From a virus, in the UHGV virus genome UHGV-1533542: a stretch of 30,878 nucleotides of DNA. One strand, written 5' to 3'. The notes below the pieces were generated by a model. It was given only the letters and a program-made list of their open reading frames with translations, had not been told where the DNA came from and did no database searches. Of the stretch, positions 2,146-29,697 are shown piece by piece (the stretch's first letter is position 1; each line of letters starts with the position of its first letter). Both the position numbers and the translations under genes were made by a program.

Positions 2146-2628
2146 CTATCTTGTCAGGGTGTCATACTGTTTTTCGCAGACTCTTCCGGCTTCGGCTGCC
2201 CGGTCAGCATACTCTGCCAGTTGTCTGTTTCTCTCGAGAGATTTGCTGAGCACGTCGGCAAGCAAAACTCCGGTGTCTGCGGCTGACGTCCCAGCGCCGA
2301 CAATGGCGTTATACTGCCTGAGCTGCTCACGGATGGCAAAGAGTTGTTGCTGCAACCTGCCAGCGCGAGCGGCAGCATCAAGAGCATCATTGCGCGCCTG
2401 GTCGATTCTTTGCTGCGCTTCACGTTCATTGGTCACTTTCTCCTGTTCGTAGTACTGACGAACTTTGTCTTCTTCGTCTTTGCGGTCTTCTTCCGCCTGC
2501 GCATACCCGGCATCGTACTGGCGACTACCGTGTATATTCCAGGCAACCACTCCGACGATGAACAGAGCAGCAAGCATCACCACGATAACCAGTTGTTTCC
2601 AATATGCTTTTACGAATGCCCAGATCAT
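2146..2628 (-). CDS. Rz-like i-spanin
   Basis: ATG overlaps endolysin stop (ATGA); N-terminal TM helix ([18 protein letters not shown]) then charged coiled-coil domain; contains an embedded out-of-frame lipoprotein ORF; last gene of lysis cassette. Confidence 0.8.
2154..2390 (-). CDS. Rz1-like o-spanin (lipoprotein) embedded in Rz in another frame
   Basis: ATG at 2390 inside Rz; signal peptide with lipobox LAGC ([13 protein letters not shown]); short Pro-rich mature part; embedded arrangement as in lambda Rz/Rz1. Confidence 0.65.
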   Translation of the reverse strand: MMLLMLPLALAGCSNNSLPSVSSSGSITPLSALGRQPQTPEFCLPTCSANLSRETDNWQSMLTGQPKPEESAKNSMTP

Positions 2629-3254
2629 ATAGCCAGCACCTTACTGGCAGTGACGTACCGCGCGCGCCGGTCGTCGATGCCGTTCCGGCCACCATTGATA
2701 ATCAGAGTTACACGTACAATATCTCCGGTATACTTCATGCAGCCTTTGCTGGAGAAGAACCAGGCCGCGCTACGAGCCGCGTATTCGTCCTGTGCCAGCA
2801 GTTCAGGATTCTCCAGCAGGTCCACTTTCAGGCCGTTTCCGCAATCACGATAGTTATTCAAACCGGTAATCTGGATAAGTCCGCGGCCACGGTAATTCCA
2901 GCCATCGCCGGGGGCATTGTTCCCCATGCGTTTGCTGTACACCAGATTGGCAATCGCTCGCTGGCGCTCGAGTGGCAATGGTGGTTCACCAGCATGGCGA
3001 CCCAGTGCATTAGCCTGCCCCTGAGTGAGACGCCCAGCCCGAACGAAGTTAGCCAGTCCGCTGACACTGTAGTTGAAATTCTCCTGCAACCTGGTGAAGC
3101 CCCCAGACTCATGCCCGACTTGGGCAATAAACATTGCCTGATCTTCTGCTTTGCTGATACCAAACTCTTTCATCGCAGAAGTTATATGCGAGAACCAGCG
3201 TGCGGCCAGCGCCTCGCTAATACCAGCAGCTCGCTGGAATTGTTTAATCTCCAT
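2625..3254 (-). CDS. endolysin, glycoside hydrolase family 19 (chitinase-like lysozyme)
   Basis: Start at internal ATG 3254 (MEIKQF...), not the longer ORF from 3485; motifs [35 protein letters not shown] typical of GH19 phage endolysins (from memory); sits between holin-like genes and Rz. Confidence 0.88.
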
Positions 3255-3552
3255 GTTTAGACCTCGATATTTTGAAAATCTGAACAACGTTACCGCGTGT
3301 TTTAATAACCGCGGCAAGCATGACAGCGTTGATAATGACCTCAGATAAATCCACAGCCATTGGCGTGCGTAACCAGATTGCATAGACGACACGAACAGGA
3401 ATACTGGCCGCAGCAACAATAAGGAAATAAGCAAGCCACCCTCCCCATCTTCGATGTTGAGAGCCGTTACGCCGGAATGTGACAACGCGAATTGCTATGC
3501 CAGTACAAATAACTGCATTGGTGATAAGCAAAAAAAACTCATGCGTTACCAT
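3244..3552 (-). CDS. holin/antiholin-like small membrane protein
   Basis: 102-aa ORF with 2-3 hydrophobic helices, directly upstream of and overlapping the endolysin start; function assigned by position only. Confidence 0.5.
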
Positions 3553-3952
3553 CGTCTTTTCTCCCCGGAATTAAATCGCGTGGATTGTCTGAACGGTGGT
3601 AGAGCCATATACCAATACGCACAGCGACAATTGCTGACACGAATGCGCCAGCAGAGAAAACAATCCCTTTTTCAAAAGAGTCCTGCGTGATGGTAGGGAT
3701 CAGGCTGGCTATGCCGATAAGAATTGATGCTGCTGGTTTGTAGAAAAGAAGTCCACAGAGAAAGCTAAGCATCGATAAGAGTACGCGACGATGAATTGGG
3801 TACTCTACCGCAGAGGTAACAAAAATTACCGCACCAGCAAGAGCACCGAGCGCCACCTCTGGCGGAACGCCTACGATAACTGCAGCAAGAGAGCTCACAC
3901 TAAGCCATTGATTTAAAGAATCAGTAGTTAGATGGGCTGACATAATGAACAC
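3539..3952 (-). CDS. holin-like membrane protein (class I-like)
   Basis: 137 aa, about 3 TM helices and charged C-terminus ([19 protein letters not shown]); first gene of lysis cassette; start ambiguous (GTG 3952 or ATG 3943; a TAAGGAG lies about 20-29 nt upstream). Confidence 0.5.
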   Translation of the reverse strand: MFIMSAHLTTDSLNQWLSVSSLAAVIVGVPPEVALGALAGAVIFVTSAVEYPIHRRVLLSMLSFLCGLLFYKPAASILIGIASLIPTITQDSFEKGIVFSAGAFVSAIVAVRIGIWLYHRSDNPRDLIPGRKDDGNA

Positions 3953-4172: not shown

Positions 4173-6929
4173 TTAGCTACTTTCAAGCATTGCAAGACGT
4201 GATTCTATTTTTTCGATTCTTCTACGCAAATAAGCTGACTCAAGCCATAAACACTGGTCAGTACGGATACCCCACCTATTTCCAGCCTTGCAAACCAGAG
4301 TTCGCTCTTCTGTTTCGTATTCTTCTTCCATCTCAATTTCGACGCCATCCACAACTTTAGTGATCATCCTTACCGCCATCACTGGCGCGTATTTATCATC
4401 CCATTCATCGTAACAGAGAAGGCCAAATCTGGTTCCATCAATCCCATGCGCGAGGAAAGTGTCTCTCACTTGTTGTGCTATAACACCAAAATGCCAGCGG
4501 GCACCATCTCCCTTTTCCCTGACGGCATCAAGCCAGCGAAAAGCTACAATCCTGATATCTCCCCATGCATCCAGAATTGCATCACCTTCATAACCACGAG
4601 ACATATACAAGCTGAGCTCACTTGTACTAATCGGTTCACTTTTTTCTCTACCATCTGATGTGTTTATCGAACCGTTCGCAGAATAAACCTGTGCCCATCT
4701 AAATGATGGTGCACCAAGAGATTTGCTGTTATCAATAATTGGTGAAAAATTACCTTTAATGGCAATATTTCCAGAGTCGCCGAGTATATTAATAACTGCA
4801 GAGTCATCACCATGGTTTTTTACGCTTAAGTTTCTTGATGAAATATTTATATCTTTGTTATATCCACTAACATTAATCCATCTTTTACCATCAATGTGAT
4901 ACCCGTAAATATTTCCGTCTGATTGTTCGTCAGGTGACTCTCTAAGAACAATAGCATCTGCTCCAGACGACCATTGTATTTTTGTATCTGTAGGCCTCCA
5001 GTTCTTTATAATGAACGAACCATCAGTAAACTCCGTTTTTATTTGTCTATTGTCTACAAATGCGTCTCTTGGTTTAAACTCACTTGTGTTAACGCTGCTC
5101 TGAAGATCAGAAGCAAAAAATCTAAGATTTCCTGTATAACCCTGAGTCTCGGTCTTGTTATACGCAATCATAATTCCATTTTCAAACTCAGATGATGTTA
5201 TTTTAACATCACGGCAATCACCAAAAATGCAATTTCCTTTATCAAATGTTGTTTGAGCTTTGAATTTATCAAACCTTAAATTACGAACAGGGAAACCATC
5301 AACCTCTAATGCAAAGGATGCAGGAAGGCCAAAGTATTCTGATGGCTTACCTGATGTATGATCAAGAGTAGTGGCTACTGTATTCTCAAAAACAGTCCCG
5401 CTAAAATTATTACCAATTGACGGAAACCTGATTACACTTATTGTACCTTGTATTTCAGGAGAAATACCAGATAGTGTGATGTTAGCTCCATCAAATGATG
5501 CATCTGAATACGTATATACTGATTCACTGCCAGCAATTTTAAACTGTTTAACTGAAGTTATTCTCATCGACTTTTTATGTTTAAATGTCACTGAGCTTTC
5601 AGTATTACTTACAAGATCAATCTGAGGGCTATTCCTTATCGCGATCCCTGACTGGACATAAACGTTATTAAAGTGCGTTTTTTCAGGATTTCCCTTCATT
5701 GAAAGGCTCCCGTCATTTTCTGTCAGTAGTAGTCCTTTTACCCTCCAATAGCCGACAATCTGTACGTTATCAATAACTGAATCACAGCTATCGTATACAT
5801 GCAACCCTATATCCCAGTTATCACCCAATGAATAAGAATCAGGGTTATTGTATCCTTCAATACCATTTTTACTTACCATTATTCTCAGATTGCGTAACTG
5901 TGATGCCCTGTTGATACTAACAGCTACGCTCATGGCTTTTGGTGTAGCAGGAGTAACACCTACAGAATCTTCATTTGTAAACTCAGTGAACTTACAAGAT
6001 ATCCCTTCAACAATTTTAACTGGTCTTTCATTAGAGATGTTAAAAAAATATTTGTTTTTTTCTCCATCACCAGTAAATACAAGATGGGTTCCTTTACTCC
6101 AACTTTTTAATAATCTTTCAGGCGCTGGTCTATATGTATCCCAGTAATCAATTCCATCACCAATTAATGAAACTCCAGGAGGCACATCTATATTCTTAGA
6201 AATCATCCATTTACCTGCAGGTATTCTAACGACACTTGCACCAGAATTTATCGCATTAATTAACCATTCAGACGCATCAACTTCAAAATTTAATGCAGCA
6301 TATCTTTGCTCAAACGGAACAAAATCAAGAGCGTTAACGTTATCCCGCATCTTATCCTGGAACGTTCGGTATACTGCTCCAGAACCATACTGAATAAACC
6401 AACCAAAACCACCAATAACTCCGGCGATTGCAGCATCGACATAATTACGCATTGAGCGATTATTTACAGCGTCCTGCTCAAGTGATGGATCAGCAAGGTT
6501 AGATATTCTGTTTTGCTTTGCATCGTAATATTTTGCAAGCAAAGATGGTTTCATCAATGCACGTCTGAACCACCCAAAACATTGCTGGATCAGCATCGTC
6601 AGGTAGTCAAAAGCATCTTCATGCACTTCGGGGAAAAATTTACCCTGATTGCGAAGGTCTGTCTCCTGCACTACATCAAGCACACGATCTATCGTAATTC
6701 GCCATCCAGCAGCAAGCGGAGACGGAAGAACAACAGAACCGCCACTATAAGTGCCCGCCCCAGTTACCGTATAACCGGTATCCAGAACCAATTCTGTTAC
6801 GTTCCCGTTCAGGTCAGACACCTGAACAACCAGGTCGGATTTTTTGAAAATACGGAAGGTATACGGAAATGATGTCGTAGCGCCGTTACCAGTGTATTCG
6901 TTGTGGTCAACTTCGGTTGAGACCGTCAT
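4173..6929 (-). CDS. tailspike / tail fibre with depolymerase-type body and C-terminal intramolecular chaperone (peptidase S74-like) domain
   Basis: 918-aa ORF with SD GGAGA 6 nt before ATG; C-terminal ~160 aa match, from memory, the endosialidase auto-chaperone domain (S-D-G-R-E-K cleavage motif, DAWGD, HFGVIAQQVRD, C-terminal RRRIEKIESRLAMLE); central Asn/Ser/Gly-rich repeats consistent with a beta-helix. Confidence 0.88.
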   Translation of the reverse strand: MTVSTEVDHNEYTGNGATTSFPYTFRIFKKSDLVVQVSDLNGNVTELVLDTGYTVTGAGTYSGGSVVLPSPLAAGWRITIDRVLDVVQETDLRNQGKFFPEVHEDAFDYLTMLIQQCFGWFRRALMKPSLLAKYYDAKQNRISNLADPSLEQDAVNNRSMRNYVDAAIAGVIGGFGWFIQYGSGAVYRTFQDKMRDNVNALDFVPFEQRYAALNFEVDASEWLINAINSGASVVRIPAGKWMISKNIDVPPGVSLIGDGIDYWDTYRPAPERLLKSWSKGTHLVFTGDGEKNKYFFNISNERPVKIVEGISCKFTEFTNEDSVGVTPATPKAMSVAVSINRASQLRNLRIMVSKNGIEGYNNPDSYSLGDNWDIGLHVYDSCDSVIDNVQIVGYWRVKGLLLTENDGSLSMKGNPEKTHFNNVYVQSGIAIRNSPQIDLVSNTESSVTFKHKKSMRITSVKQFKIAGSESVYTYSDASFDGANITLSGISPEIQGTISVIRFPSIGNNFSGTVFENTVATTLDHTSGKPSEYFGLPASFALEVDGFPVRNLRFDKFKAQTTFDKGNCIFGDCRDVKITSSEFENGIMIAYNKTETQGYTGNLRFFASDLQSSVNTSEFKPRDAFVDNRQIKTEFTDGSFIIKNWRPTDTKIQWSSGADAIVLRESPDEQSDGNIYGYHIDGKRWINVSGYNKDINISSRNLSVKNHGDDSAVINILGDSGNIAIKGNFSPIIDNSKSLGAPSFRWAQVYSANGSINTSDGREKSEPISTSELSLYMSRGYEGDAILDAWGDIRIVAFRWLDAVREKGDGARWHFGVIAQQVRDTFLAHGIDGTRFGLLCYDEWDDKYAPVMAVRMITKVVDGVEIEMEEEYETEERTLVCKAGNRWGIRTDQCLWLESAYLRRRIEKIESRLAMLESS

Positions 6930-7389: not shown

Positions 7390-7405
7390 GGCCGCAAGAG
7401 CGGCC
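7390..7405. terminator. bidirectional hairpin terminator between convergent genes
   Basis: GGCCGC-AAGA-GCGGCC stem-loop with A/T-rich flanks, between the stop at 7382 (+) and the stop at 7405 (-). Confidence 0.5.
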
Positions 7406-8133
7406 TATCGTTTCGCTTTGTGCTCATCCCAGCACGTTTTGCACCATGCCATTAAGCCGTCCGCATTTTGATTATTAGGGTAAAAGCTGGTTCGTTTTCT
7501 GCGGACATTACAAATTGGGCACCACTTCATATGGCGTGTATTCTTTGGGCCATCGAGACACCTTGCACACCACTTAGTCAATCCATCTGGATTTTTTGAC
7601 GATTTCCTGAATTTTTCATATGGAAGGTTTATTCTGCATCGCAAGCACTGCTTGCTACCACTTGAAACTCTGTTAGCTGATTCTTCTTTTGGCGGCGATG
7701 CAGAAGGTATTCTTGCTGGCTCTGATACTGCCTGAGGTGCTTTTTTAGATGACTGAGACGATATGTCATCACCAGGGAATCTTCCATGATATGCCGGACG
7801 CGTTGACACTCCAGGTGGAAGCTCAGCTGTAAACGGCTTTGGCTGAATCAGTTGCCTCTCTTTTGCTAACTCCTGCTGTTTATAATATGTCTGGATTACC
7901 GCACTATCATAAGCAGGAGGTGCGGAAATATTAGGCGCATTACCTCCAGTTTTTTGAAACTGAGTAGAGGTGTGTTCTATCACCTGTGTACGATTAATCG
8001 TTATCTCCCCATCTTCGGTCTTTATCGTTTTGTTATGATTAACGACCGTACGATCAGAGATCTTAGTCTTGTTCTGGTTGATAACGTAAATAATCACCGC
8101 AACCACACCAACAACTATCCAGAAAACTTCCAT
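7405..8133 (-). CDS. membrane-anchored protein with C-terminal tandem zinc ribbons, function unknown
   Basis: SD GAGGA 6 nt before ATG; N-terminal TM helix (VFWIVVGVVAVIIYVI); Pro/Ser-rich linker; C-terminal Cys cluster CLRC...WCARC...WCPIC...WCKTC (two CxxC-N~20-CxxC units). Confidence 0.7.
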   Translation of the reverse strand: MEVFWIVVGVVAVIIYVINQNKTKISDRTVVNHNKTIKTEDGEITINRTQVIEHTSTQFQKTGGNAPNISAPPAYDSAVIQTYYKQQELAKERQLIQPKPFTAELPPGVSTRPAYHGRFPGDDISSQSSKKAPQAVSEPARIPSASPPKEESANRVSSGSKQCLRCRINLPYEKFRKSSKNPDGLTKWCARCLDGPKNTRHMKWCPICNVRRKRTSFYPNNQNADGLMAWCKTCWDEHKAKR

Positions 8134-8527: not shown

Positions 8528-9214
8528 ATGACTGCTAACGTAACCCCATCTGTTTTTCATTTTGAATCAGAGGCAACCATTCGAGCCATTGTTATTGATG
8601 GAAATCCTTGGTTTGTTGCCAAAGACGTTATTAAAGCTCTTCAACTGACAAACCCCACTATGTCAATAAAATCTCTTGATGATGATGAAAGGGCTAAATT
8701 TAACTTAGGCCGTCAAGGCGAAACCAATATTATCAACGAGTCAGGCCTCTACACACTGATCCTCCGCTGCCGCGATGCGGTGACACCAGGCACTATCCCC
8801 TACCGCTTTCGTAAATGGGTTACAGGTGAGGTTCTTCCTCAGATCCGCCGCACCGGAAGTTACATTAAAAACTCGCTCCCGCAGGAAGAACGCATAAAGA
8901 TGGTTGCCGACCAGGTAGCCAACGCCACGGCGTCAGCAGTAATGCAGGCGATGAAGATAGAGAACAAAACCTACAGTGCCCCGCTGAAGCCCGGCTACCG
9001 CAGCCTGATTCACTCGCCGTCTGGTGTTCTCGGCCTGACGGAGAACTCACTGCTGATGAATCTGCTGAACCAGTTACAGGAAGACGGGCACGACGTATCG
9101 GGCGCGGCGGCAGAGCTGACCACCATGTTCTGCTACATCGTCGGTGTGAGCAAATGCCTGCGTGATATCCAGACGCACGCGGAGTACATCAACGACAAAG
9201 CAGGATTCTTCTGA
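8528..9214 (+). CDS. Bro-N domain protein (phage antirepressor-like) with C-terminal domain paralogous to the 85-aa protein
   Basis: ATG 8528 with SD AAGGTG chosen over the RBS-less ATG 8375; N-terminal Bro-N signature (FHFESEATIRAIVIDGNPWFVAKDVIKALQL); hairpin with weak T-tract after stop. Confidence 0.85.
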   Translation: MTANVTPSVFHFESEATIRAIVIDGNPWFVAKDVIKALQLTNPTMSIKSLDDDERAKFNLGRQGETNIINESGLYTLILRCRDAVTPGTIPYRFRKWVTGEVLPQIRRTGSYIKNSLPQEERIKMVADQVANATASAVMQAMKIENKTYSAPLKPGYRSLIHSPSGVLGLTENSLLMNLLNQLQEDGHDVSGAAAELTTMFCYIVGVSKCLRDIQTHAEYINDKAGFF

Positions 9215-9223
9215 CAGAACGGC

Positions 9224-9247
9224 GGCACATGGATGTGCCTTTAAATA
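9224..9247 (+). terminator. possible intrinsic terminator after the Bro-N gene
   Basis: GGCACA-TGGA-TGTGCC hairpin followed by TTTAAATAATT; T-tract is weak. Confidence 0.35.
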
Positions 9248-9287
9248 ATTCTGTACAGATTGCAGACTGTTGGTGAATAGCGTACTA

Positions 9288-9302
9288 TTACCTCAAGGGT
9301 AA
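9288..9302. promoter_or_regulatory. ATTACC-N5-GGTAAT dyad, copy d (TTACC-TCAAG-GGTAA)
   Basis: Perfect TTACC-N5-GGTAA about 60 bp upstream of the small ORF / toxin-like gene pair. Confidence 0.5.
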
Positions 9303-9362
9303 ACGGATTGGTTTCATTTTTATTAATCCGTGTAATGAACTTATGAGATATGAGGTAATGTC

Positions 9363-9542
9363 ATGCGAAACGAAAAATTGCAGATGCGTAGAGCGCAAGC
9401 TGCCGCAAGACGTTCTTTCAATGGAAGCGTAGAGTGCGTAAAAGTTACTATGACAAAAGATCACGCAAGTCGCGTATCCCGCGCTTTCTTTGATTCTCGT
9501 AACAATAAGGAAAATTATGAGTTCGTCTGCGTCGCAGAATGA
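9363..9542 (+). CDS. small ORF (59 aa) upstream of and overlapping the toxin-like gene; antitoxin candidate
   Basis: ATG 9363 preceded by SD GAGG (gaggtaatgtcATG); basic 59-aa product; overlaps next gene start by 26 nt in another frame; below the ORF-track size cutoff; coding status unproven. Confidence 0.3.
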   Translation: MRNEKLQMRRAQAAARRSFNGSVECVKVTMTKDHASRVSRAFFDSRNNKENYEFVCVAE

Positions 9543-10062
9543 TAAAAATCAAATTGTCAGATATAAGGGTCGAGTATTGCATACGCAAAATTTCTCGGCC
9601 CTTTGTGCATCTGATCTTGAGCTGAAGAAAGTATCTGATGCCTTTACCCAGTATTGGAAAACGGGATACCATCCATCTCTTGGTAAAGATGCTGCATTTG
9701 CTCGTCCGACAGAAATGCTTAAACTAAATGTCAGGCATACTCATGTCGATAACCAAGACTATATTCCAGAAGATAGTGATAAAAAACACACTGGTAAAAA
9801 ATCATCTTGGGATGCATGGAAAAATATAGCGTCTGTGCAAGTAAAATGCATACCAACAAGTGATTGCTTTTTAGTTTATTCGGTAAATCACAATCGTGAT
9901 GCGCTGGTTATGTTTTTTGTTGACGCAGATGCCCACAACATAACTGAGCAAGAAGAGTTTAAAGAGGCAGCAATCACTATCAGTTATCAATTCTTTGAGA
10001 AAACAAAAACAGAACCAATGCCTTTAGAAGAAGATCTTTTTTCTGATAAATGGAAGGAATAA
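9517..10062 (+). CDS. 181-aa protein with YafO-like toxin features (candidate mRNA-interferase-type toxin)
   Basis: ATG 9517 with SD AAGGA (ORF opens at TTG 9490); by-eye similarity to my recollection of E. coli YafO (F.QY.K.G..P..GKDA, L.V.HTHV, F/HLVY...AL....D..H); strong terminator follows. Confidence 0.6.
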   Translation: MSSSASQNDKNQIVRYKGRVLHTQNFSALCASDLELKKVSDAFTQYWKTGYHPSLGKDAAFARPTEMLKLNVRHTHVDNQDYIPEDSDKKHTGKKSSWDAWKNIASVQVKCIPTSDCFLVYSVNHNRDALVMFFVDADAHNITEQEEFKEAAITISYQFFEKTKTEPMPLEEDLFSDKWKE

Positions 10063-10086
10063 GCCCGCGTTGCGGGCTTTTTTGTG
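10063..10086 (+). terminator. intrinsic terminator of the plus-strand accessory unit
   Basis: Directly after stop 10062: stem GCCCGC/GCGGGC, 3-nt loop, then TTTTTTGTG. Confidence 0.8.
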
Positions 10087-10120
10087 TCTGCGGATTCCCG
10101 CCCGGGCGGCGGTGGCATTC

Positions 10121-10148
10121 GTTAAAAACAAGGCCGCGAAAGCGGCCT
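10121..10148 (-). terminator. intrinsic terminator ending the long minus-strand virion operon
   Basis: Stem AGGCCGC/GCGGCCT with GAAA loop; on the minus strand it is followed by TTTTT; lies just downstream of the 46-aa ORF stop and abuts palindrome 10149-10160. Confidence 0.6.
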
Positions 10149-10160
10149 GTGACATGTCAC
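10149..10160. repeat. perfect 12-bp palindrome GTGACATGTCAC, copy i
   Basis: Exact palindrome between the stop of the 46-aa ORF and the minus-strand terminator; identical copies at 27433-27444 and 29698-29709. Confidence 0.8.
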
Positions 10161-10167
10161 GCTCACG

Positions 10168-10308
10168 TTATGACAAGCCTATGTACCCTGCTACACCAGA
10201 TAATATCAAAATAACTGCAACAGCAAATTCGCCATCGTCAATGATACATTTACGGTTCATAACGCCAAGTGCAACAAGCGCAAACACAACAAGAATAAAA
10301 GCAATCAT
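10168..10308 (-). CDS. 46-aa two-helix membrane micropeptide, last gene of the virion operon
   Basis: ATG 9 nt after the stop of the 824-aa gene with SD AAGGA; product MIAFILVVFALVALGVMNRKCIIDDGEFAVAVILILSGVAGYIGLS has two hydrophobic segments; not in the ORF track (below size cutoff). Confidence 0.45.
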   Translation of the reverse strand: MIAFILVVFALVALGVMNRKCIIDDGEFAVAVILILSGVAGYIGLS

Positions 10309-10317
10309 TTCTCATCC

Positions 10318-12792
10318 TTATTGCGGAGTGACATCCTGTGGTCGCCACCAGTATGTCTGGTTAAACTCTTTCTTCGAACGTTGCTCCATTTTACGCAAAT
10401 AGCCTGGTGAAAAATACTCCTGCATCTGGTTAAAGATCATGTGATCGAGAGCCGCCTTTAAGTACCAGAGATTCGCACCTGGCATCAAACCTTTCCCCAG
10501 CTTCACCAGATCACCACCAGTCTGCTCACTCTTCCCTTCCACAGCATTTAACGGTATGCCCTGAGCAATCTTCACTACGTCATCAACCAGACCAGCTACC
10601 GGGCCAAGCATCGACGCCAGCGCGCCGCTTCCGTACCTAGTGTGATCTGACAATAAAAAGTCACCGTAAAGGCCAAGACCACCACCTTTCAGTAGAGCAC
10701 CAAGCCAAAATTTAGCAGCATCTTCTCCTGTCATCTCGCGAGGATTACGACCAGACGCAAGGTCGTTAAGTTGCTGCGACAAAGCGCCAAGAATGGTCGT
10801 ACTGGCAATAAACGTCGCAATATATGCCGCACGCCCACCAGCAGACGGCATACCCATAGCGCGTGACCAGTGACGCATAACTACCGAGATAGGGAACGAT
10901 TTAAACAGGAAAACACTTCTCGTTAATTCACCTTTCCATGTTCCACGCTGAATACCAGAACCGGTTATCAGTTGCTCACGTGCTCCCGGTGTAATAACAG
11001 CCATATCAACTTCTTCAGTTACGGCACCGAGAAGTTTACGCATTGCCTCAAATTTCACGCGTTCAGGCTCACCAAGATGTTTAACTGCTGAATCAGGGAT
11101 ACGCATAATGCTTTCCGGTGTCAGCATCGTATTATTGCCGTTCCCCCAGTCCTCCTGTTGCGCCAGCTTCCATACGCTCCAGTCTGTTTCAGTAATCCCT
11201 TTGCTTTTCAGGATACGAAAATCAGAGTCATCGAGGCTACGAAGGTCTGGTGTCCGTGACACTACCTCTCCCAGGCTTCCCATCATTGTTACGCCATAGG
11301 CGCGCTTGTGCGCATCTGACCATGCTGTAAGCCCACTGGCACGCATTACCGCCGTTGCCGCCCAACGAGACACAGACGGCCCCATATTATCCATTGCCCA
11401 GCGGTTAACACTGCCAAGTAGAGATTCCATCGCCAGACCAGCGCGGCGCGCCCGCGCAAGCTCAGTACGGTTCGTTGGGTCCATAGCTTCAAGCTGGTTG
11501 CGGAATAACTGGTTCATTGGAAGGTTGGTCACCTTCGCAGACAGATACATGGTTCCAAGATCAGAGAACGATGACAGCAACGCGGATCCTAGTCGGCTGG
11601 CAACCAGCCAGTTGCGGATATTGTCAGACCAGCGCGCGATGTGCGGATTCGCTACAGGCTGTGTCTTTCCGGAAATAAAGTTGTACAGATTCTCTGTGTT
11701 GTTCGCCAGCCGCTCGACTTTACCGGTTTTACTCGGGTTAGCTGTTGCCGTTTCTGCCTTCACCTGATCAAGAAGAGAGCGGAAAACATGATCGGGGTTT
11801 GGGCCATATGTTTCCACCAGTGCAATATCTTTACTGATACCTTCCAGGTGACCGACCATGATTTCCCATAGAGAGCGATCGCCATAAAGTTGCTGATATT
11901 GCAGATAGGAATCTGCATCTTTGAAATGTATCTGTCGTGATGCATTACCCCGGTTAGCACGTGCGCCGGAAATTCGCATTCCGGTATCAGTAAGCTTATT
12001 CAGCCCACCAGTAGCGATCGTGTTATAAGCCTCTCCAAGAAATGCAGACAACTCGGCATCGTTCATCAGTTGTCCATCGACTCGGGTATAATATTTGCGA
12101 TCCAGCTTACCTATAACATCGCTAACCCACTTATCCTTTGATACCGCCCCAACCTTTTCCATAGAATGATGTTGAGGGATCCCCCAGTTTTCGAGATAGC
12201 CAATGTCCCCACCAGCATCATTAAACCGGCGGCGCAGTAGCTCTGTCACTTCTCTCCACGCCTTAGCACCTTTTCTTGCTTTAGCATTGCCAGTATTTTG
12301 CCCTCGCATTTCATATACCAGGTCACGCACGCCAGCTTCATCTTCAAACAGGCCAAAAAAGCGAGGATCAACTGCTTCAAATGCCTCCTGCAATTGACTC
12401 AATGCATAATCACGAGTGGCTTTTGTTCTGGATTCAACAGAGAGGAAATTCGATTTACCGTCTGCATTAAAAGCAATAGTACGGTTAAGAGCGCCAAGTT
12501 TCCCATCAGCCCCTTGATAGCTATTGATAAATTTATCCAATCTCTGACGTGCGGCTATAGTGAGAGCCACACGACGTTTCTTTAATGCCGCTTCTCGCTG
12601 TAATTCTTCAGATGCCAATTGTGCTGCACGATACAACCGTTCTGATTCGGAAAGTTGTCGCCACGACATCGGATCATCACGAGCAATGGAGCGCATATTT
12701 CGATAAATGCGGTCTTCAATGTTCTGTATTTCTCGCGCCGTTAACGTGCGCTGCGCCGCCTGCTGGACCGCTTGTATACATTCCTGTCTCAT
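10318..12792 (-). CDS. large internal virion / ejection protein (824 aa)
   Basis: Long ORF in the virion operon; position equivalent to internal core/ejection proteins of podoviruses; function by position only. Confidence 0.75.
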   Translation of the reverse strand: MRQECIQAVQQAAQRTLTAREIQNIEDRIYRNMRSIARDDPMSWRQLSESERLYRAAQLASEELQREAALKKRRVALTIAARQRLDKFINSYQGADGKLGALNRTIAFNADGKSNFLSVESRTKATRDYALSQLQEAFEAVDPRFFGLFEDEAGVRDLVYEMRGQNTGNAKARKGAKAWREVTELLRRRFNDAGGDIGYLENWGIPQHHSMEKVGAVSKDKWVSDVIGKLDRKYYTRVDGQLMNDAELSAFLGEAYNTIATGGLNKLTDTGMRISGARANRGNASRQIHFKDADSYLQYQQLYGDRSLWEIMVGHLEGISKDIALVETYGPNPDHVFRSLLDQVKAETATANPSKTGKVERLANNTENLYNFISGKTQPVANPHIARWSDNIRNWLVASRLGSALLSSFSDLGTMYLSAKVTNLPMNQLFRNQLEAMDPTNRTELARARRAGLAMESLLGSVNRWAMDNMGPSVSRWAATAVMRASGLTAWSDAHKRAYGVTMMGSLGEVVSRTPDLRSLDDSDFRILKSKGITETDWSVWKLAQQEDWGNGNNTMLTPESIMRIPDSAVKHLGEPERVKFEAMRKLLGAVTEEVDMAVITPGAREQLITGSGIQRGTWKGELTRSVFLFKSFPISVVMRHWSRAMGMPSAGGRAAYIATFIASTTILGALSQQLNDLASGRNPREMTGEDAAKFWLGALLKGGGLGLYGDFLLSDHTRYGSGALASMLGPVAGLVDDVVKIAQGIPLNAVEGKSEQTGGDLVKLGKGLMPGANLWYLKAALDHMIFNQMQEYFSPGYLRKMEQRSKKEFNQTYWWRPQDVTPQ

Positions 12793-12797
12793 TTAAT

Positions 12798-14600
12798 TTA
12801 ACCTCTCAAGAAACACGCCACAGCAACATCAAACAGGCTGGAATCCTGTATTGCCTGCTCACTTTCCCTGTTCGCTTCATCCAGTACTTCACGCGCACTG
12901 CGCGATTGTGGATTACCATCATCATCCAGCACGGTGATTATCATGTCCGGAGATTCAAGCAGCGAGTCTTCAGCTATACGCAGATCAATATCTCCTGCCG
13001 GATCTGCCATCATTTTTTGTTCTGTCTGTTGCAATATCTTACCGGGCTCAAAAGGAGCTACTTCGTCTGGCGTCCTGACCTCTGCTGTTTTATAGAATGA
13101 AACAGCCTGAGCATTAAGTTCACTTTCAGCCTGCTGTCTCCGTGCCAGTTCTGCTCGAGCTTCAAAAAACTGACCGCCAGGCTCATGCGGTGCCAACGCG
13201 TTACGGGAAAATTCCAGGCGTTCTTGTGCCTGCCGGATTCGTTGGTCAATATCGCGAATTCTGGCCTGTTTATCTGATCGAGCACGAGACAAAGCTTTAC
13301 CGCTACCAGTTGGCTCTTCTGCAAGAATTTGTGCGCGCTGTTCAGTGAGATTGTCGATAATTCGTTGGCTATTAGCGATTTCAGACTGGTAAACCTGTCT
13401 ATCGCCACGCGACAAAAGCTGCGCGGCCTGTTCTTCAAGCAACCGATTTTCTATAGCGCGCGCCGTTTTTCCATCATCTACAGATGACAGAGCCTCATTA
13501 ACTGCCTGAGAAAGCAGACTCTTGTGCCCAGGGATTTCACTGAAAGATGCAGACTCAACAATGCTGGCAACGTCTACAGGTCTCCCCTGGCTAACATCAG
13601 ACATGGCTTTTCGCAGAGCCTGAATGTGAGAATTACGCGAAAGCACGTTGATCGGCACGCCAGGAGCAATATCAATTTCAGCATGATGAGCGGCATTCGC
13701 CGCCAGTGCAGCATCGATATCAACTGGTGAAAAATTTGGTGCGCTTGTAGACTCGCCGCGAGAGTTAATAAATCTGCCGACACCACCAAACGCCACCCCA
13801 AGAACAGCATCAATAGCAATTGCCTGTCGATCCAACACATCATACTGGTTAGCCATTTCGCTATAGCCACCATCACGAAGCGTTTTTGCAGTAAGCCCAC
13901 GCTGTGCCATACCGAACGCAATATTTGTACCTGCGGCATAGGCAATATCTGGCGTTGCACGTACTGCTGTTGCTGCGGCGCGTCGCACTGAACTCTCACC
14001 CGTCCGCGCAAGCTGAGCCGCCACACCTTCCGCCAGCGCACCACCAGCACGTAACCCGAGGCTCATAGGGATCAGTGTTCCGGCACCAGCAGTAATGCCC
14101 TGCACTAATCCCGCTTCCTGCGCCGTCCTGAAATCAACACCCTGTGCTATCAGCCGTTCAAACTCAGAAAAACCCTGTAGCGAAGTTACCGCCGCTGCAC
14201 CTCCGACAGGACCACCGAGCGTTGTACCGACAACAGCCTGCCCGCCCATATCGAACAACCCATAAAGAACCTGCCCGGCGGTTCCGGTTGTCGCGGCATC
14301 AGGCGTCAGCCGCTTAACCTGCTGCTCTGCTAGTTTTCTCTGCTCGGCAATGTATGAAACTGAAGTATCATTGAGCGAGGTGTTTTCGTTAATAAACTGA
14401 GCAATCGGGGATACGATTTTATCCATCCCAGCCCATAGCAACTGATCTGGCTTTGCCACCAGCCCGGAGTACAAACCAGACAATGCCGCTCCTACAGCAT
14501 TGTCGAAAAAACCAACATCGCTGTTAAAGCCCGCTGGATTTGATGCTGCTTCGTCAAGTTGCTGATTCTGGTTTACTGGATTAAGGCCAAAGTAACTCAT
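12798..14600 (-). CDS. internal virion / ejection protein (600 aa)
   Basis: ATG overlaps upstream stop (ATGA); Gly/Ala-rich N-terminal part and charged helical C-terminal part. Confidence 0.75.
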   Translation of the reverse strand: MSYFGLNPVNQNQQLDEAASNPAGFNSDVGFFDNAVGAALSGLYSGLVAKPDQLLWAGMDKIVSPIAQFINENTSLNDTSVSYIAEQRKLAEQQVKRLTPDAATTGTAGQVLYGLFDMGGQAVVGTTLGGPVGGAAAVTSLQGFSEFERLIAQGVDFRTAQEAGLVQGITAGAGTLIPMSLGLRAGGALAEGVAAQLARTGESSVRRAAATAVRATPDIAYAAGTNIAFGMAQRGLTAKTLRDGGYSEMANQYDVLDRQAIAIDAVLGVAFGGVGRFINSRGESTSAPNFSPVDIDAALAANAAHHAEIDIAPGVPINVLSRNSHIQALRKAMSDVSQGRPVDVASIVESASFSEIPGHKSLLSQAVNEALSSVDDGKTARAIENRLLEEQAAQLLSRGDRQVYQSEIANSQRIIDNLTEQRAQILAEEPTGSGKALSRARSDKQARIRDIDQRIRQAQERLEFSRNALAPHEPGGQFFEARAELARRQQAESELNAQAVSFYKTAEVRTPDEVAPFEPGKILQQTEQKMMADPAGDIDLRIAEDSLLESPDMIITVLDDDGNPQSRSAREVLDEANRESEQAIQDSSLFDVAVACFLRG

Positions 14601-17110
14601 TGCGGAATATCTCCGGAGAATCTCTGACGCTTCTGTGTCAGATCAAGAACAACAGGAGAACCATCATCTTTCAGCAGATAACCAGTACCAAGTTTCACCA
14701 GGTACTGACTATCGCCGTAACTTTGCAAACCATACTGACCAGGCGGTGTTTTTATCCCGGTGCCGACAACTTGTTCATTCCAAGCCTGATTAACCTGCTT
14801 ATCGAATTGCTCTGCAGACATTCCCCACGGCAAAAGGACATTCCCCATTCCGTTATAGTCATGCACGCCACCTGTAGCTACGTTAACAGCCTGTTTCCAG
14901 ATATCAGTGTCAATTTCGCCTGATATCACGCCTTTTTTCGCCATCACACCAGCGTAATAGTCCTTTGCGATCTCGTATGCCATTGATGCCCCCTGAGCAT
15001 CACCAGCAAATGCATCCTTCACCATGTCAGAAAACTCAAGGCGAAGATCAGCATCTTTAGGCATCGGAATACCTTTCGCATCATCAGTACCTTTACGAGC
15101 CGCCGCGCCAGCAAGAATTGTCTGCGCAGCGGTTTCAGGAGACACGGAAACATCCGGATTAAACCAGTTTTTTTCTGCCAAAATACCACCAGGCTTGTCC
15201 ATCAGTATCCCGGCAACGGCAGCAGATGGAGCGTTGGCACTGATCTGCTGTAGTGCTGACATATACACCTGCCCACCACCAGTGCTCTGCCTGATGGTAT
15301 CGAGATATGCTGCCTGTTGAGAAACTGGAGCATCACGAAAGAAAACACCGATCTGATTGGCCTCGTCTTTGGAAAAGAACGTCAGTGGAGTGCCATATGA
15401 CTTAGCAAGGTCACTGACCTGAGCGGCACGCAAGGCAACGCTATGTCCAAAGTTATCCTTATTGCTCATGTCGATAGGCTTTGCCTGTCCGGAGGCAAGA
15501 GAGAACTGCACAGGATCCGACTGCCGCTGCTTTATCACCTGATTTGCAGCCGAAACAACGTTGTCATAAAGAGCTGCGCGAGACGCATAACCCTCCCCTG
15601 TCTCACCAGTATCCGGGCGTAATTGCTCAACATATGCTGTAATGCTGCTTGTCGGCATGTTGCGGAAAGAGCCTATATACTGTCCGGCGATCTGCGTATT
15701 CTTAAACTCGGTATATCGCAGGTTTCCTTCTCTGACTCCATAAGCTGCAATAAAATCATCCTCACCAGGTGGGTTAGGAAATTCAACGCCACGCATATAC
15801 GCAGCTGTCGCATCGCGAACCTGGCTGTCAATCATCGTTTTATATTCATCCTGCTGCTGCCGACGCAGTTGATCCGCCTGTCGCATAAAACTTGCCTGCG
15901 CCTCAGAAGATGCCGCATCGAATGCTGCATTACCGGTATAGCGTTTGGTGTTGGTTGGAATTGTTGATAAACCAAGTGCTGCACTGACACCAGCAGTTAA
16001 CTGCTGATCACTGTATGGCTGGCTACCGTTCTCATGATGGATAATGGCTGCACAAAGCGCCTTCAGGGTATCAGGATTTGATGCATCGAGAGGCTCATCA
16101 GCAGAAACGCCAAGTTGTTCGCACACTGCTTTGATATACGACATAGTGTCATTTTTATCAGTGGGCGGTGCCCAGCGATTAATTATCTCGCTGACGGTAT
16201 CAATACCCTGCCTATGATACGACATCAGGTTCCGCCCTAATGCACGAATCCCGTGTTCAGGTGTTTCGAATTTAGCAAATCGACCATCATCACCGGTCTG
16301 GCCTACCCACGGATTAGTTTTGCTGTATTCGAGATTTCCTGGGTTATTGTTGCGTATGCCACGGGCACGATCGGAAGAGTCACTATCGGCTACAGCACGG
16401 CGAGCTCCAGCAGCAGTATCACTTAACTCGCCATTACTTTGGATGAATGCGGTCGCATTGTTTGCCGACCACTGGGACAATGCGGCATCAGCAACCTTCT
16501 CTTTAAACTCGATTTTCTTGGCCTGGATTTGCTCGTCGCTCCAGCCATGCGCAATGCCGTAATCCTCAATTTGCTGGAAAGTTTGCTTATTAGCCAATAC
16601 GTATGCGGCGTTGTCGCCATACAATGCTGCGGCATTTTTACCATTGTTCAGCAGCGTAGCCTGAAACTGACCTTCTTCGTAGGCATTTATTTGCCCTATC
16701 TCGTGCCGCCCGGCCTGCGTAGTGAACTGAATACGCTGCTGCTGCGCCTGCTGCATGAAAGCATTACGAGCCTGTTCATCCGGCAGCGACATAGCCAGTT
16801 GTTCGACCTGAGCATCAAACTGCTGCGTATACTCCTGACCTTTTCCAATAGCATTTTTCCCTTTCAGGTTAAGCAAACCTGTTTCAGGGTTATTCAGCAG
16901 ATCGCTGCTTATCTGGCTTAAGCTAAGAGAAGCATCCTGAGCCATAGCAACATTCGCGCGCTGTTTTGCCTGCGCAATAATACCTGCATATTGCTCTGCA
17001 ACATCGCCAAGTACATCACCGACATTTGGTGTCTGAAACGATGAGAATCCCTGCGTCGAAATCCCTCTGCTCTGAACCTGACGGCCCGATGTTGTTGGTA
17101 CAACTGGCAT
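14597..17110 (-). CDS. internal virion / ejection protein (837 aa)
   Basis: Long ORF in the virion operon; contains a conserved-looking NNPGNL segment whose function I cannot assign. Confidence 0.75.
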   Translation of the reverse strand: MPVVPTTSGRQVQSRGISTQGFSSFQTPNVGDVLGDVAEQYAGIIAQAKQRANVAMAQDASLSLSQISSDLLNNPETGLLNLKGKNAIGKGQEYTQQFDAQVEQLAMSLPDEQARNAFMQQAQQQRIQFTTQAGRHEIGQINAYEEGQFQATLLNNGKNAAALYGDNAAYVLANKQTFQQIEDYGIAHGWSDEQIQAKKIEFKEKVADAALSQWSANNATAFIQSNGELSDTAAGARRAVADSDSSDRARGIRNNNPGNLEYSKTNPWVGQTGDDGRFAKFETPEHGIRALGRNLMSYHRQGIDTVSEIINRWAPPTDKNDTMSYIKAVCEQLGVSADEPLDASNPDTLKALCAAIIHHENGSQPYSDQQLTAGVSAALGLSTIPTNTKRYTGNAAFDAASSEAQASFMRQADQLRRQQQDEYKTMIDSQVRDATAAYMRGVEFPNPPGEDDFIAAYGVREGNLRYTEFKNTQIAGQYIGSFRNMPTSSITAYVEQLRPDTGETGEGYASRAALYDNVVSAANQVIKQRQSDPVQFSLASGQAKPIDMSNKDNFGHSVALRAAQVSDLAKSYGTPLTFFSKDEANQIGVFFRDAPVSQQAAYLDTIRQSTGGGQVYMSALQQISANAPSAAVAGILMDKPGGILAEKNWFNPDVSVSPETAAQTILAGAAARKGTDDAKGIPMPKDADLRLEFSDMVKDAFAGDAQGASMAYEIAKDYYAGVMAKKGVISGEIDTDIWKQAVNVATGGVHDYNGMGNVLLPWGMSAEQFDKQVNQAWNEQVVGTGIKTPPGQYGLQSYGDSQYLVKLGTGYLLKDDGSPVVLDLTQKRQRFSGDIPQ

Positions 17111-17122
17111 CTTATTATCCCC

Positions 17123-17662
17123 TTATCGACCGGTTGGAGTGCCAACAGCAGCAGAAATCGGCGCAGCCTTCTGAGAGAACGGGCTCCACGTTCCGCCGCC
17201 CATCTGGTATGCACCGTATGCTTTTAGTGGTGCCGTTAACAAAGTGCTGGTCATCGATGATTTAGCAGCCGACTGAGCAGCAGCCCCCTGTGCCTGAGCA
17301 TTCATTCCCTGAACCTGATACCCATATGCCTCACGCTGAGCATTATTCACTGTCGTTAACGCATCAAGAGTGCCGAACTGAGCATTATCCGCAAAAACGT
17401 CAAGAGCTGTTCCGCTACTTAATTCCGCACCGGTAGCCCCCATAGTGGCCGCCGCAGTGCCTGAGCGTTGACGCATTTCACGACGACGCTGATCCGCTTC
17501 AATATTCCCACGATTGATTGAATCCTGTGCCTGAACTTCAGCAATTTCAGCATTCCGATCAGCTATGGCTGACTGGTATTTTGCCTGCTTGCTCTGGCTG
17601 TACATTGACGCGGCTGTGGATGCCACTGTGACGGCAACCAAAGCGATGGCTGGGTTACACAT
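17123..17662 (-). CDS. virion protein with N-terminal hydrophobic segment (179 aa)
   Basis: ATG overlaps upstream stop (TAATG); N-terminal hydrophobic helix then Ala/Gln-rich region. Confidence 0.7.
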   Translation of the reverse strand: MCNPAIALVAVTVASTAASMYSQSKQAKYQSAIADRNAEIAEVQAQDSINRGNIEADQRRREMRQRSGTAAATMGATGAELSSGTALDVFADNAQFGTLDALTTVNNAQREAYGYQVQGMNAQAQGAAAQSAAKSSMTSTLLTAPLKAYGAYQMGGGTWSPFSQKAAPISAAVGTPTGR

Positions 17663-18126: not shown

Positions 18127-20597
18127 CAGAATCCCCCAACAGTAAGGCGAGGAATAACGGCAAGAACAGACAGTGGCAACGGGTCAAGCTGACGGATTCT
18201 TACACGTCCGTTTTTGCCCCAGTTACTGTCCAGTTTCACTTCTACTTTTCCGGTAGCATCATCAACAGAATCATCGTAGAACTCGAATTCACGCTGTGGA
18301 TATTCGTACCATTTACCGCCGGGCGTAGTCGCCCAGATGCCGCGACTGGCATTCACAACCAGAGTAACGGACGGGATCACCTGTTTTTTGTCCAGCAGCG
18401 TTTCCTGTCCGCTAATGTTGATATCCAGTGTTTCGAATTCAGCAGTTATTGGCAGGCCGATGTGCACAACAGCCCCCGGTGATTCCAGCGTGACGGCACC
18501 TCCGGAAACCACTTTCTGTGGTTCCACGTTCGCATCAGAGAGAATGTTTACGGTCTGGCCTTCAAGATGAGACATGCCTCCAAATGTCCGGCGCGCCATC
18601 TGCCAGTTCGTGGTGGCCGCATTCCTGAGGGATGGCGGGACGTTCCTGTTAGCACGAACCACTACAGCGGTATTGCTGGTTACAGAAATAATGTCGCAAC
18701 GTAATTCTTTTGACACTTCATCGCCAGTATCAGGATCAGTTCCGGTATAAGGGAACTGTAGTTGCGCACCAACATCACTACTGGTGAAGTACGCACCACC
18801 AGAAACACTGATTGTATATTCCGCGCGGTAATCCCATTCACCAGAACCACCAGTGATGGTCATCGTTCTGTCAGACGTATTTCTTCCATCATAGCTAAGG
18901 CCAGAATCAACAAAGAAAGCATCTTCATCGCTGGTAAATAAACGGCTGGACAGTCTCTCGATGTATCTCACTGTTTGCCCGTTAACGGTTCTGTTAACGA
19001 CGAAATACACCGCATCTTCATTGCCTTCGCTGATACTGCATGTGCTTTCATATTTTCCGGTACTGGATTGTGGTGCCCATGCAAAAACCTGCTGATCACG
19101 CAAATAGGTCATCACCAGTAATTTACCGTCATCACGAATGCAGAAGGCGCTGGAGTAAGGGACAATCGAGAAGCACCAGTCAACAATGCTGTGCTTCTGA
19201 AAAAGATGATTGGCAAGGATGGTCAGGTCGTTCCCCTGATAGCCGTCAACATCGAATGAGTAGGCCAGATCACGGACAACACTGCCTTTCTCCTGGACGA
19301 ACAGAGCAATATTCGCCACGGCAATTGGTGGGACATTGCTCGAGCCATTTGATCCCTGAGAGCTGAATGCAAATGATGATGGGGTAAGCACTTTGTTCTG
19401 GTCGCCAGTGATGACGTACTCACCTCCGGAAGTCAGCGCCACCAGCGAACCAACATCAATCAGGTGACGGATCTCATTAACCTGACGCCCGGCATAGGTG
19501 TAGATAATTCTGTCGTCATCCTGCGTAGGATTGCTTTTGCCAAAATCCTTATAATCCCCGGTACGGCTGGCCCAGATAGTCTGAGGGAACGCAGTCGATG
19601 CGGCGAAGTAAAGGCGTTGTTGATAATAAACAACAGTGCCAGGATAACCGTTAATACTGTTCCAGGCATATTTAGCCCATTTATAGCTGGCATTATCCTC
19701 GCCAACTACCTGCGAAGGGATATAGGAAATCACCTCGGCAGTTGCAGTAGTTCCATTTGCAGCAGAGATACGGGCAATGCCAAAACCACTGTGCAGATAC
19801 TCCCACTCAATGCCGGTATCATCATCACCGGATCCGCCCCAGCCATCCCATGATGTGCCTTCTGTATGCGAAGGGCGCAAAGTGCCTGTTTTGCCTGCTG
19901 TAACGGCGCGATAGTAGTTACTGTCTGCACGGCGAATATCGCCAATCGACGTACTCTTACTGGTTTCCCATACCGGCACAGAATCCACTGCAGGCTGTTC
20001 CAGATAGAACAATTTGCCTACCTGCTCCGCGCCAAAAATTGAGGCGCTTGCCGTTAACGTAATTGTCCCGGTGCTGGCGCTGGCATAAACCGTCACTGAC
20101 TCGTCAATATTGATATCTTCAAATGGCCCGTTCTTCGTTACCACATCAACCAGTTGCCAGTTGTCATGCGCATAGCGGCGCAACTCTTTCGGCGGGTATG
20201 CCGGATGAACCAGCGTAAGCACGTCTGCGCTTTGCGTGAATTTAATTCGGAACAGATCGGCTTCAGTATATGGCGTGGCAATTTCATAAATAACATTGCT
20301 GCTGTTCAGCACCAACGCACCATCTTTGATAACGCGCATGTACTGGTGTCCGAACTCCAGAGCATAAGTCTGAACCGTCGAGAACTGGAACGGGATCAGG
20401 CGGCATTTCCGATTTGGGTATTTGGCGGCACCGACAAAACGCGTACCAGGTCGATTCTCAACGCCGCCATACTGCCGCACGATAAAGTTATCGCACTTGC
20501 GCAATGCCACCTGGTACTTCGCCATGTCGATACGACCGTACAACGACGGTCCAATCTCACCACCGGCAAAGCTGGGCTGGATCCAACTGATAGCCAT
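18126..20597 (-). CDS. tail tube / nozzle-like protein (823 aa)
   Basis: ATG overlaps upstream stop (ATGA); size and position match the tail tubular protein B analogue of podoviruses; no motif-level confirmation. Confidence 0.7.
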   Translation of the reverse strand: MAISWIQPSFAGGEIGPSLYGRIDMAKYQVALRKCDNFIVRQYGGVENRPGTRFVGAAKYPNRKCRLIPFQFSTVQTYALEFGHQYMRVIKDGALVLNSSNVIYEIATPYTEADLFRIKFTQSADVLTLVHPAYPPKELRRYAHDNWQLVDVVTKNGPFEDINIDESVTVYASASTGTITLTASASIFGAEQVGKLFYLEQPAVDSVPVWETSKSTSIGDIRRADSNYYRAVTAGKTGTLRPSHTEGTSWDGWGGSGDDDTGIEWEYLHSGFGIARISAANGTTATAEVISYIPSQVVGEDNASYKWAKYAWNSINGYPGTVVYYQQRLYFAASTAFPQTIWASRTGDYKDFGKSNPTQDDDRIIYTYAGRQVNEIRHLIDVGSLVALTSGGEYVITGDQNKVLTPSSFAFSSQGSNGSSNVPPIAVANIALFVQEKGSVVRDLAYSFDVDGYQGNDLTILANHLFQKHSIVDWCFSIVPYSSAFCIRDDGKLLVMTYLRDQQVFAWAPQSSTGKYESTCSISEGNEDAVYFVVNRTVNGQTVRYIERLSSRLFTSDEDAFFVDSGLSYDGRNTSDRTMTITGGSGEWDYRAEYTISVSGGAYFTSSDVGAQLQFPYTGTDPDTGDEVSKELRCDIISVTSNTAVVVRANRNVPPSLRNAATTNWQMARRTFGGMSHLEGQTVNILSDANVEPQKVVSGGAVTLESPGAVVHIGLPITAEFETLDINISGQETLLDKKQVIPSVTLVVNASRGIWATTPGGKWYEYPQREFEFYDDSVDDATGKVEVKLDSNWGKNGRVRIRQLDPLPLSVLAVIPRLTVGGF

Positions 20598-27432: not shown

Positions 27433-27444
27433 GTGACATGTCAC
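27433..27444. repeat. perfect 12-bp palindrome GTGACATGTCAC, copy ii
   Basis: Exact copy 5 bp after the stop at 27428 and 5 bp before terminator hairpin 27449-27476. Confidence 0.8.
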
Positions 27445-29656: not shown

Positions 29657-29697
29657 AGTATTCAAAATCCATCAAATTCATCATGCATAATCTACTC

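Follow-up and report, generated by a model that had tools for sequence, protein, structure and literature searches.

A 46-residue hairpin membrane peptide of phiV10-type prophages and the interchangeable cassette slot it appears to occupy

The short open reading frame (ORF) that closes the internal virion protein operon of this prophage is a real gene under purifying selection and, judging from the sequences of related loci, it is one allele of an interchangeable cassette in a slot that is always filled. The gene itself is already known, having been catalogued since the phiV10 genome record. What is new here is the swappable envelope-protein slot, bounded by a palindrome-terminator unit, and with it an unannotated 57-aa hairpin ORF. 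The window (the whole stretch of 30,878 nucleotides analysed, UHGV virus genome UHGV-1533542) is the virion and lysis half of an Escherichia coli prophage of the phiV10/epsilon15 type (genus Uetakevirus). The prophage adjoins the host genes yfgG, yfgH and yfgI, and a 321-nt query covering window positions 10100-10420 was 100% identical to E. coli strain 85.0412.

A small gene at the end of the internal virion protein operon

The operon is read from the minus strand. Three internal virion protein genes (12798..17662) precede the one encoding IVP-D, and its features, in order of transcription, are:

17123-17662, minus strand: core protein of the T7 gp14 family, by profile matches
14597-17110, minus strand: 837-aa protein with profile matches of lytic-transglycosylase type
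12798-14600, minus strand: 600-aa protein of the same operon
10318..12792, minus strand: 824-aa internal virion (ejection) protein, IVP-D; phrog_684; homologue of epsilon15 gp17
10315..10319, minus strand: Shine-Dalgarno sequence AAGGA of the 46-aa ORF, read from the sequence; it shares bases with the TAA that ends the 824-aa gene, 6 nt upstream of the ATG
10168..10308 (stop codon included), minus strand: gene for a 46-aa two-helix (hairpin) membrane micropeptide, ATG...TAA; orthologue of PhiV10p21, WP_000559990.1 and phrog_7892
10149..10160, strandless: perfect 12-bp palindrome GTGACATGTCAC, the 3' boundary of every cassette type in the slot
10122..10148, minus strand: rho-independent terminator, with a stem at 10148-10131 (GGCCGC-TTTC-GCGGCC) and then TGTTTTT; annotated in phiV10 and epsilon15

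The 824-aa protein is 27.7% identical over its full length to epsilon15 gp17, which has been assigned to the T7 gp16 (IVP-D) family (Hardies et al. 2016, PMC4819975), and we therefore place it in that family; towards the C-terminus it is hydrophobic and rich in glycine. Its gene runs into the small ORF as ...CCGCAA-TAA-GGATGAGAA-ATG, with the ATG 9 nt past the stop, and the TAAGGAT at the junction of IVP-D stop and Shine-Dalgarno sequence is kept in nearly all related loci. Downstream, the stop codon of the ORF is followed after 7 nt by GTGACATGTCAC and then by the GC-rich stem-loop and T-run; in related phages this operon terminator also serves a convergent plus-strand unit. The start signal, the 9-nt spacing and the terminator directly behind the ORF, all pointed out by an earlier sequence-only reading of this DNA, are thus present in the sequence.

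A promoter scan found no sigma-70-like promoter upstream of the ORF; promoter-like (10268-10241) and terminator-like (10237-10218) matches within it are only at chance level. No Rfam model came near threshold when 9200-10900 was scanned, and the region is thus not a known RNA element. In epsilon15, repressor operators are annotated upstream of three units: the terminase genes, the gp3-gp18 structural operon and the tailspike gene. Operators at the operon promoter, together with the 9-nt spacer and the failure to find a promoter-like site upstream, make it most likely that the peptide is produced late, from the last cistron of the internal virion protein operon.

The product is MIAFILVVFALVALGVMNRKCIIDDGEFAVAVILILSGVAGYIGLS. 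By hydropathy its hydrophobic helices span residues 1-17 and 28-45, and AlphaFold2, run with the family alignment, predicts a helical hairpin (helix 2-19, turn 20-24, helix 25-45) at a mean pLDDT of 91; the two hydrophobic helices and short loop proposed from the sequence are therefore borne out by both. Helix 1 is very hydrophobic; helix 2, less strongly so, has a GxxGxxG face. The sole basic residues, R19 and K20, are both in the turn, which by the positive-inside rule probably places the loop in the cytoplasm. There is no charged residue beyond E27, the C-terminus reads ...GVAGYIGLS, and periplasmic exposure would be almost nil. A Foldseek comparison of the model with the PDB returned generic helical hairpins only, every one with E >1, and so told us nothing further.

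The same reading had called the ORF unannotated, which is wrong. The phiV10 record lists it as PhiV10p21 (YP_512275.1), a 'putative integral membrane protein, two predicted transmembrane helices'; the window peptide is 97.8% identical to it, differing in one residue (D25 in the window, Y25 in phiV10). RefSeq E. coli genomes carry the gene as WP_000559990.1, a hypothetical protein, and the records of SPN1S, SPC32H and 65FD as a putative membrane protein. It matches phrog_7892, a PHROG without assigned function, over positions 1-46 of 46 (hmmscan E 5.5e-33). Across PhiV10p21, WP_000559990.1 and phrog_7892 we are dealing with the same gene, at 97.8-100% amino acid identity and in the same place between the 824-aa gene and the terminator. 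The exact peptide sequence occurs on at least 1000 contigs, called hypothetical throughout, and the gene is found in 54 of 5426 complete E. coli genomes (~1%). The 55-aa versions in Salmonella phage records are N-terminal over-calls: the upstream in-frame ATG exists only with a 10-nt spacer, and in E. coli alleles that ATG is out of frame.

Might the ORF be a chance reading frame in a 3' untranslated spacer, from which no protein is made? Its very short length would fit, as would a literature search that found no proteomic or ribosome-profiling support. We compared alleles from more than 50 related loci, taken from phage records, IMG/VR contigs and one Citrobacter genome. These comprise 29 distinct DNA alleles and 24 protein alleles, with frame, ATG and length preserved. 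Variable sites fall 29/16/41 at codon positions 1/2/3, and pairwise dN/dS against the window allele is 0.12-0.37; in the two alleles most distant from it nearly all synonymous sites have changed, against about one fifth of the non-synonymous ones. Start codon and Shine-Dalgarno sequence are conserved, and the frame is held despite this saturated synonymous divergence. Relatives detectable by HMM at <50% identity have the same length, and the structure prediction is confident. The substitution pattern effectively refutes a chance ORF, to which we give almost no weight. Selection is nevertheless weaker than on the neighbouring virion gene (dN/dS ~0.02). Conservation and synteny in relatives had been proposed as a check on the ORF, and the gene proves to be both conserved and syntenic, with a frameshift or lost stop in ~9 of 56 loci, probably through four independent events.

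The family is small. A profile search of 1.84 billion representative proteins gave five clusters only, of 33-48 aa, one of them from Providencia rettgeri, and no link to a larger or named family. In the 45-48-aa relatives (Providencia, metagenomes) the loop MNRK-x-II-x-DGEF and the C-terminal GVAGYxG persist; across all five clusters the loop can be written (M/L)(N/E)RK-x-(I/V/M)I-x-x-x-(E/A)(F/L), with a GVAGYxG-like C-terminal motif. A scan of genome contigs found a single locus, in Citrobacter braakii. The position behind the last internal-protein gene holds in divergent phages (loci L065 and L066).

Beyond the terminator, the window continues with a convergent YafO-family toxin gene, a Bro-N gene of anti-repressor type, a 242-aa gene, the tailspike gene (4173-6929) and the lysis cassette. 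The YafO-family toxin-like gene (9490-10062, plus strand; Pfam 25.8 bits, cut-off 25) is common to phage TL-2011b, and the ORF at 9363-9542, which overlaps it upstream, could be an antitoxin; the pair forms an accessory module between the anti-repressor region and the operon terminator. At 10083-10121 on the plus strand is a gene remnant, the last 12 codons (SADSRPGGGGIR) and stop of a 53-aa signal-peptide protein that is intact in phiv142-3 (Orf11), BUCT711 and TL-2011b ('transmembrane anchored protein'). The rest of that gene has apparently been replaced by the YafO module, which has its own terminator (10061-10079). The 242-aa protein (phrog_6762; 7405-8133, minus strand) has C-terminal matches to endonuclease VII and HNH-type zinc fingers; its gene, flanked by those for the tailspike and Bro-N, is missing from this place in phiV10.

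The slot behind IVP-D and its palindrome boundary

HEMP4 and phiv142-3 encode an 824-aa protein 99% identical to that of the window (99.5% over the full length in HEMP4), yet lack the 46-aa peptide. We typed the DNA from the IVP-D stop codon to the palindrome at 80 IMG/VR loci whose IVP-D C-terminus (last 66 aa) is 100% identical to that of the window:

Type A, 22 of 80 loci: the 46-aa hairpin
Type B, 35 of 80 loci: a 57-aa two-helix ORF, unannotated and with a GTG start, followed by a 98-aa protein with multiple transmembrane (TM) segments (phrog_3075)
Type C, 14 of 80 loci: a 137-aa lipoprotein (phrog_8691), no hairpin
Type D, 7 of 80 loci: a hydrophobic ORF of 41 aa followed by a 126-aa lipoprotein (phrog_3716)
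Unreadable, 2 of 80 loci

An empty slot was found at none of the 80. In other phages the slot holds gp18 (64 aa, two TM helices) in epsilon15 and gp19 (103 aa, two TM helices and a charged tail) in Tyrion, and in one metagenomic relative two genes, the first a 92-aa one of Tyrion type and the second encoding a peptide-family member of 45 aa. In the distant relatives BcepC6B, YA3 and YeP5 we saw no annotated same-strand gene at this position. Where a hairpin peptide is present it is usually the first gene of the slot. The hairpin peptides show no detectable homology to one another (hhalign against epsilon15 gp18 and the 57-aa hairpin), and no cassette product matched a named family; what they have in common is that all are predicted to be envelope-type proteins, namely inner-membrane hairpins, multi-TM proteins and lipoproteins. 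Scanned against Pfam, NCBIfam and PADLOC, the peptide and its slot-mates had no match above threshold, and with PADLOC neither the peptide nor three slot-mates had a match at E up to 1.

A close counterpart is epsilon15 gp18 (NP_848226.1, phrog_29212), which occupies the same slot, ahead of the same palindrome and terminator, and is likewise small, with two TM helices forming a hairpin around a short charged loop; its gene overlaps the gp17 stop. It differs in being 64 aa long and in having no detectable sequence or profile similarity to the peptide, and it too is uncharacterised.

Two observations bear on how the cassettes move. First, between the E. coli and the Salmonella or Citrobacter copies dS is 0.35-0.6 for the peptide gene and ~1.5 for the adjacent 824-aa gene, that is, 3-4x lower in the former, and the last ~120 nt of the 824-aa gene have unusually conserved third-codon positions (loci L002, L012, L042 and others; region 10168-10437). 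Such a pattern could reflect recent lateral exchange of the cassette along with its borders; alternatively, the low divergence could stem from constraint at the nucleotide level, for example an embedded signal. Second, a type-D lipoprotein (78.6% identical), with the palindrome and a stem-loop hairpin behind it, is also found in Klebsiella phage ST11-OXA245phi3.2, whose IVP-D is only 28% identical to that of the window. Finding this lipoprotein and the palindrome behind IVP-Ds so far apart suggests that the cassette travels with the palindrome between distant podophages.

The type-D lipoprotein is encoded within 2710-3300 of locus L068 (also in phage ZX5) and within 1498-1920 of locus L148, the Klebsiella phage. 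The 41-aa ORF ahead of it looks like a two-helix peptide frameshifted at an A-run, identical in all seven loci. The type-B 57-aa ORF has a GTG start and a Shine-Dalgarno sequence (MFLIILSVIISGVLLFIDRYKYFLNPQTQAICWFIFVVQGVVLVASLIEGRPLIFTG), lies upstream of the annotated 98-aa membrane protein and has no PHROG match. We found it in phiv142-3 (L003, ~3052-2879, minus strand), in BUCT711 (L006), in L071 and in 34 other IMG/VR loci.

The palindrome recurs beyond the slot. GTGACATGTCAC is present three times in the window (10149-10160, 27433-27444 and 29698-29709), where ~0.002 exact copies would be expected by chance, and a copy with one mismatch lies at 24343-24354. It is found at 2262-2273 and 19493-19504 in phiV10 (L063) and at 2142-2153, 19517-19528 and 39612-39623 in epsilon15 (L064). 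The sites are syntenic, all three in epsilon15 and the first two in phiV10: the first follows a small gene convergent with the terminase genes, the second the cassette slot and the third a gp49-like regulator gene. The order is constant, stop codon, palindrome, rho-independent terminator, with the stop often inside the palindrome.

Copy 3 overlaps a promoter-like GTGACA-18 nt-CATGAT (29680-29709, minus strand) directly after the gp49-like gene (29706-30047); ~25 nt past it come a strong terminator (29639-29656, minus strand) and then the terminase genes, a layout that recalls, by analogy, the lambda Q / PR' / tR' arrangement of late antitermination. The palindrome is distinct from the annotated epsilon15 repressor operator, and a literature search for the string found no paper that contains it. 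It may mark a boundary for recombination, or bind a protein involved in termination or antitermination.

What the peptide might do

Literature searches on phiV10 and epsilon15 membrane proteins, gp18, exclusion in Uetakevirus, the peptide and the palindrome found no functional study and no mention of the peptide. By analogy with P22 sieA, the nearest characterised counterpart in position and logic, the most plausible reading, which we hold tentatively, is an accessory role at the envelope, a SieA-like blocking of DNA injection, in line with the superinfection-exclusion peptide that the sequence-only reading had offered; this reading ranks first on the strength of the position, the membrane location and the variability of the cassette. 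That every cassette product looks like an envelope protein is the usual signature of accessory genes acting on the cell surface. SieA resides in the inner membrane, as is predicted for the peptide. In P22, sieA has the last ejection-protein gene on one side and the anti-repressor region and tailspike gene on the other, an order that the peptide gene matches, and it too comes in several types, unrelated or barely so, that close relatives have exchanged (PMC10883804).

The differences are considerable. SieA family members have ~160-200 aa (SieA itself 162-164), 3-4 TM helices and a cytoplasmic FxRYPxEAxxFNK motif, and P22 sieA is expressed from the prophage under its own promoter (PMC10883804). 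The peptide has 46 aa, two helices, no such motif and no homology to SieA, with neither sequence nor profile similarity in our comparison; no promoter was found for its gene; and its slot is never empty, whereas sieA is carried by 22 of 66 P22-like phages and thus absent in two thirds of them (PMC10883804).

Mechanistically, an exclusion peptide of this kind would sit as a helical hairpin in the cytoplasmic membrane, made as the last cistron of the late operon, and would interfere with the conduit formed in the inner membrane by the internal proteins that an incoming related phage ejects. The outcome would be a block to superinfection, or to a membrane puncture that could trigger premature lysis of the infected cell. 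Late expression would suit such a shield, as secondary injections may depolarise the membrane and fire the holin early.

Three considerations count against exclusion. First, no promoter of its own was detected and the operon promoter in epsilon15 carries operators; the peptide is therefore probably made in lytic growth only, when classical exclusion by a prophage is not at stake. Second, a slot that is never empty, usually with a hairpin first, could mean that the function is required in each lytic cycle. Third, the peptide would have near-zero periplasmic exposure.

A lysis-timing accessory, holin- or antiholin-like, is a rather unlikely second candidate. Here a late hairpin would modulate the proton-motive force or the triggering of the holin, and the slot would be a second variable lysis-control locus. 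T7 gene 17.5 and T4 t likewise close the run of structural genes, at a distance from the gene for the endolysin. The late-operon position, the tight translational coupling, the GxxGxxG helix-packing motif in helix 2 and the never-empty slot are in keeping with this role. Among the slot-mates, Tyrion gp19 and the 92-aa protein of L065 are holin-like in having two TM helices and a highly charged C-terminal tail, and the 98-aa protein has a sub-threshold match to Phage_holin_5_2 (E 0.027). The peptide itself resembles class II holins and pinholins (phage 21 S21) in being small, late and built of two TM helices, but it has no charged C-terminal tail, no holin-family match and no Pfam, NCBIfam or PHROG lysis match, and it is not adjacent to an endolysin gene. 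A complete lysis cassette is already present at ~2146-3952, with two holin-type proteins, a GH19 endolysin and an Rz-like spanin; its endolysin and holin genes (~2600-3950) are ~6.5 kb from the peptide gene, and the statement of the sequence-only reading that lysis is encoded elsewhere holds. Two of the four cassette types, moreover, encode lipoproteins, which are ill-suited to a holin role.

That reading had also offered an ejection or assembly factor, which our data disfavour. In this case the peptide would be packaged with IVP-D, would chaperone it, or would be an immunity peptide protecting the producer cell from membrane insertion of IVP-D; small membrane immunity proteins are encoded directly behind the genes for pore-forming bacteriocins. 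The peptide gene is immediately 3' of IVP-D and translationally coupled to it, a hairpin comes first after IVP-D in epsilon15, phiV10, Tyrion, type B and possibly type D, IVP-D has glycine-rich hydrophobic C-terminal segments, and here too one can cite the slot that is never empty. But IVP-D C-termini that are 100% identical are paired with unrelated cassettes, including the type-C lipoprotein with no hairpin at all. A dedicated structural or chaperone partner is thus unlikely, as the same IVP-D works with each of them. The frameshifted or extended alleles and the three distant phages with no annotated gene in the slot point the same way and, to our knowledge, gp18 is absent from the lists of epsilon15 virion proteins, which also counts against such a role. 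We regard it as unlikely overall.

Lastly, the gene might be a moron expressed from the prophage to alter host physiology, for instance by inhibiting a host membrane enzyme as do epsilon15 gp22 and Iap, a peptide of Pseudomonas phage D3. Like the peptide, these are tiny hydrophobic inner-membrane phage proteins; gp22 (66 aa, two TM helices, an inhibitor of the alpha-polymerase) comes from the same genus as the window prophage, and a small two-TM serotype-conversion peptide (epsilon15_p02) is annotated in this phage group. The cassette is variable and horizontally exchanged, as morons are, and the conserved third-codon positions at the end of the upstream gene could hide a promoter. Yet the promoter scan found none there, and the peptide has no similarity to gp22 (hhalign probability 0.05%), which has a long charged C-terminal tail and is encoded beyond the tailspike gene next to an O-antigen polymerase gene. 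Neither epsilon15 nor phiV10 has its conversion genes at the slot; in both they are found beyond the tailspike gene, and phiV10 is annotated as converting via O-acetylation alone. We consider a moron improbable.

Exclusion at the envelope therefore stays our preferred, tentative reading. A broader form of it, which we think doubtful, is that Uetakevirus-type podophages keep an obligatorily filled, quickly exchanged envelope cassette where the internal virion protein operon ends, bounded by the IVP-D stop codon and a mobile palindrome-terminator unit, and that its hairpins, the 46-mer among them, are a new class of late exclusion or immunity micropeptides gating insertion of the T7-gp16-type ejectosome into the inner membrane. 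Such micropeptides would shield an infected cell against secondary injections or against the membrane-active internal proteins of the phage itself. Of 5426 complete E. coli genomes, 546 (~1/10) match the sequence bordering the slot. If the slot's products block injection or modulate lysis, they would be very small tools to probe how T7-gp16-type ejectosomes cross the inner membrane, and the cassettes would shape which podophages infect O157, other E. coli and Salmonella, among them the derivatives of phiV10 and SPN1S that serve as reporter or biocontrol phages.
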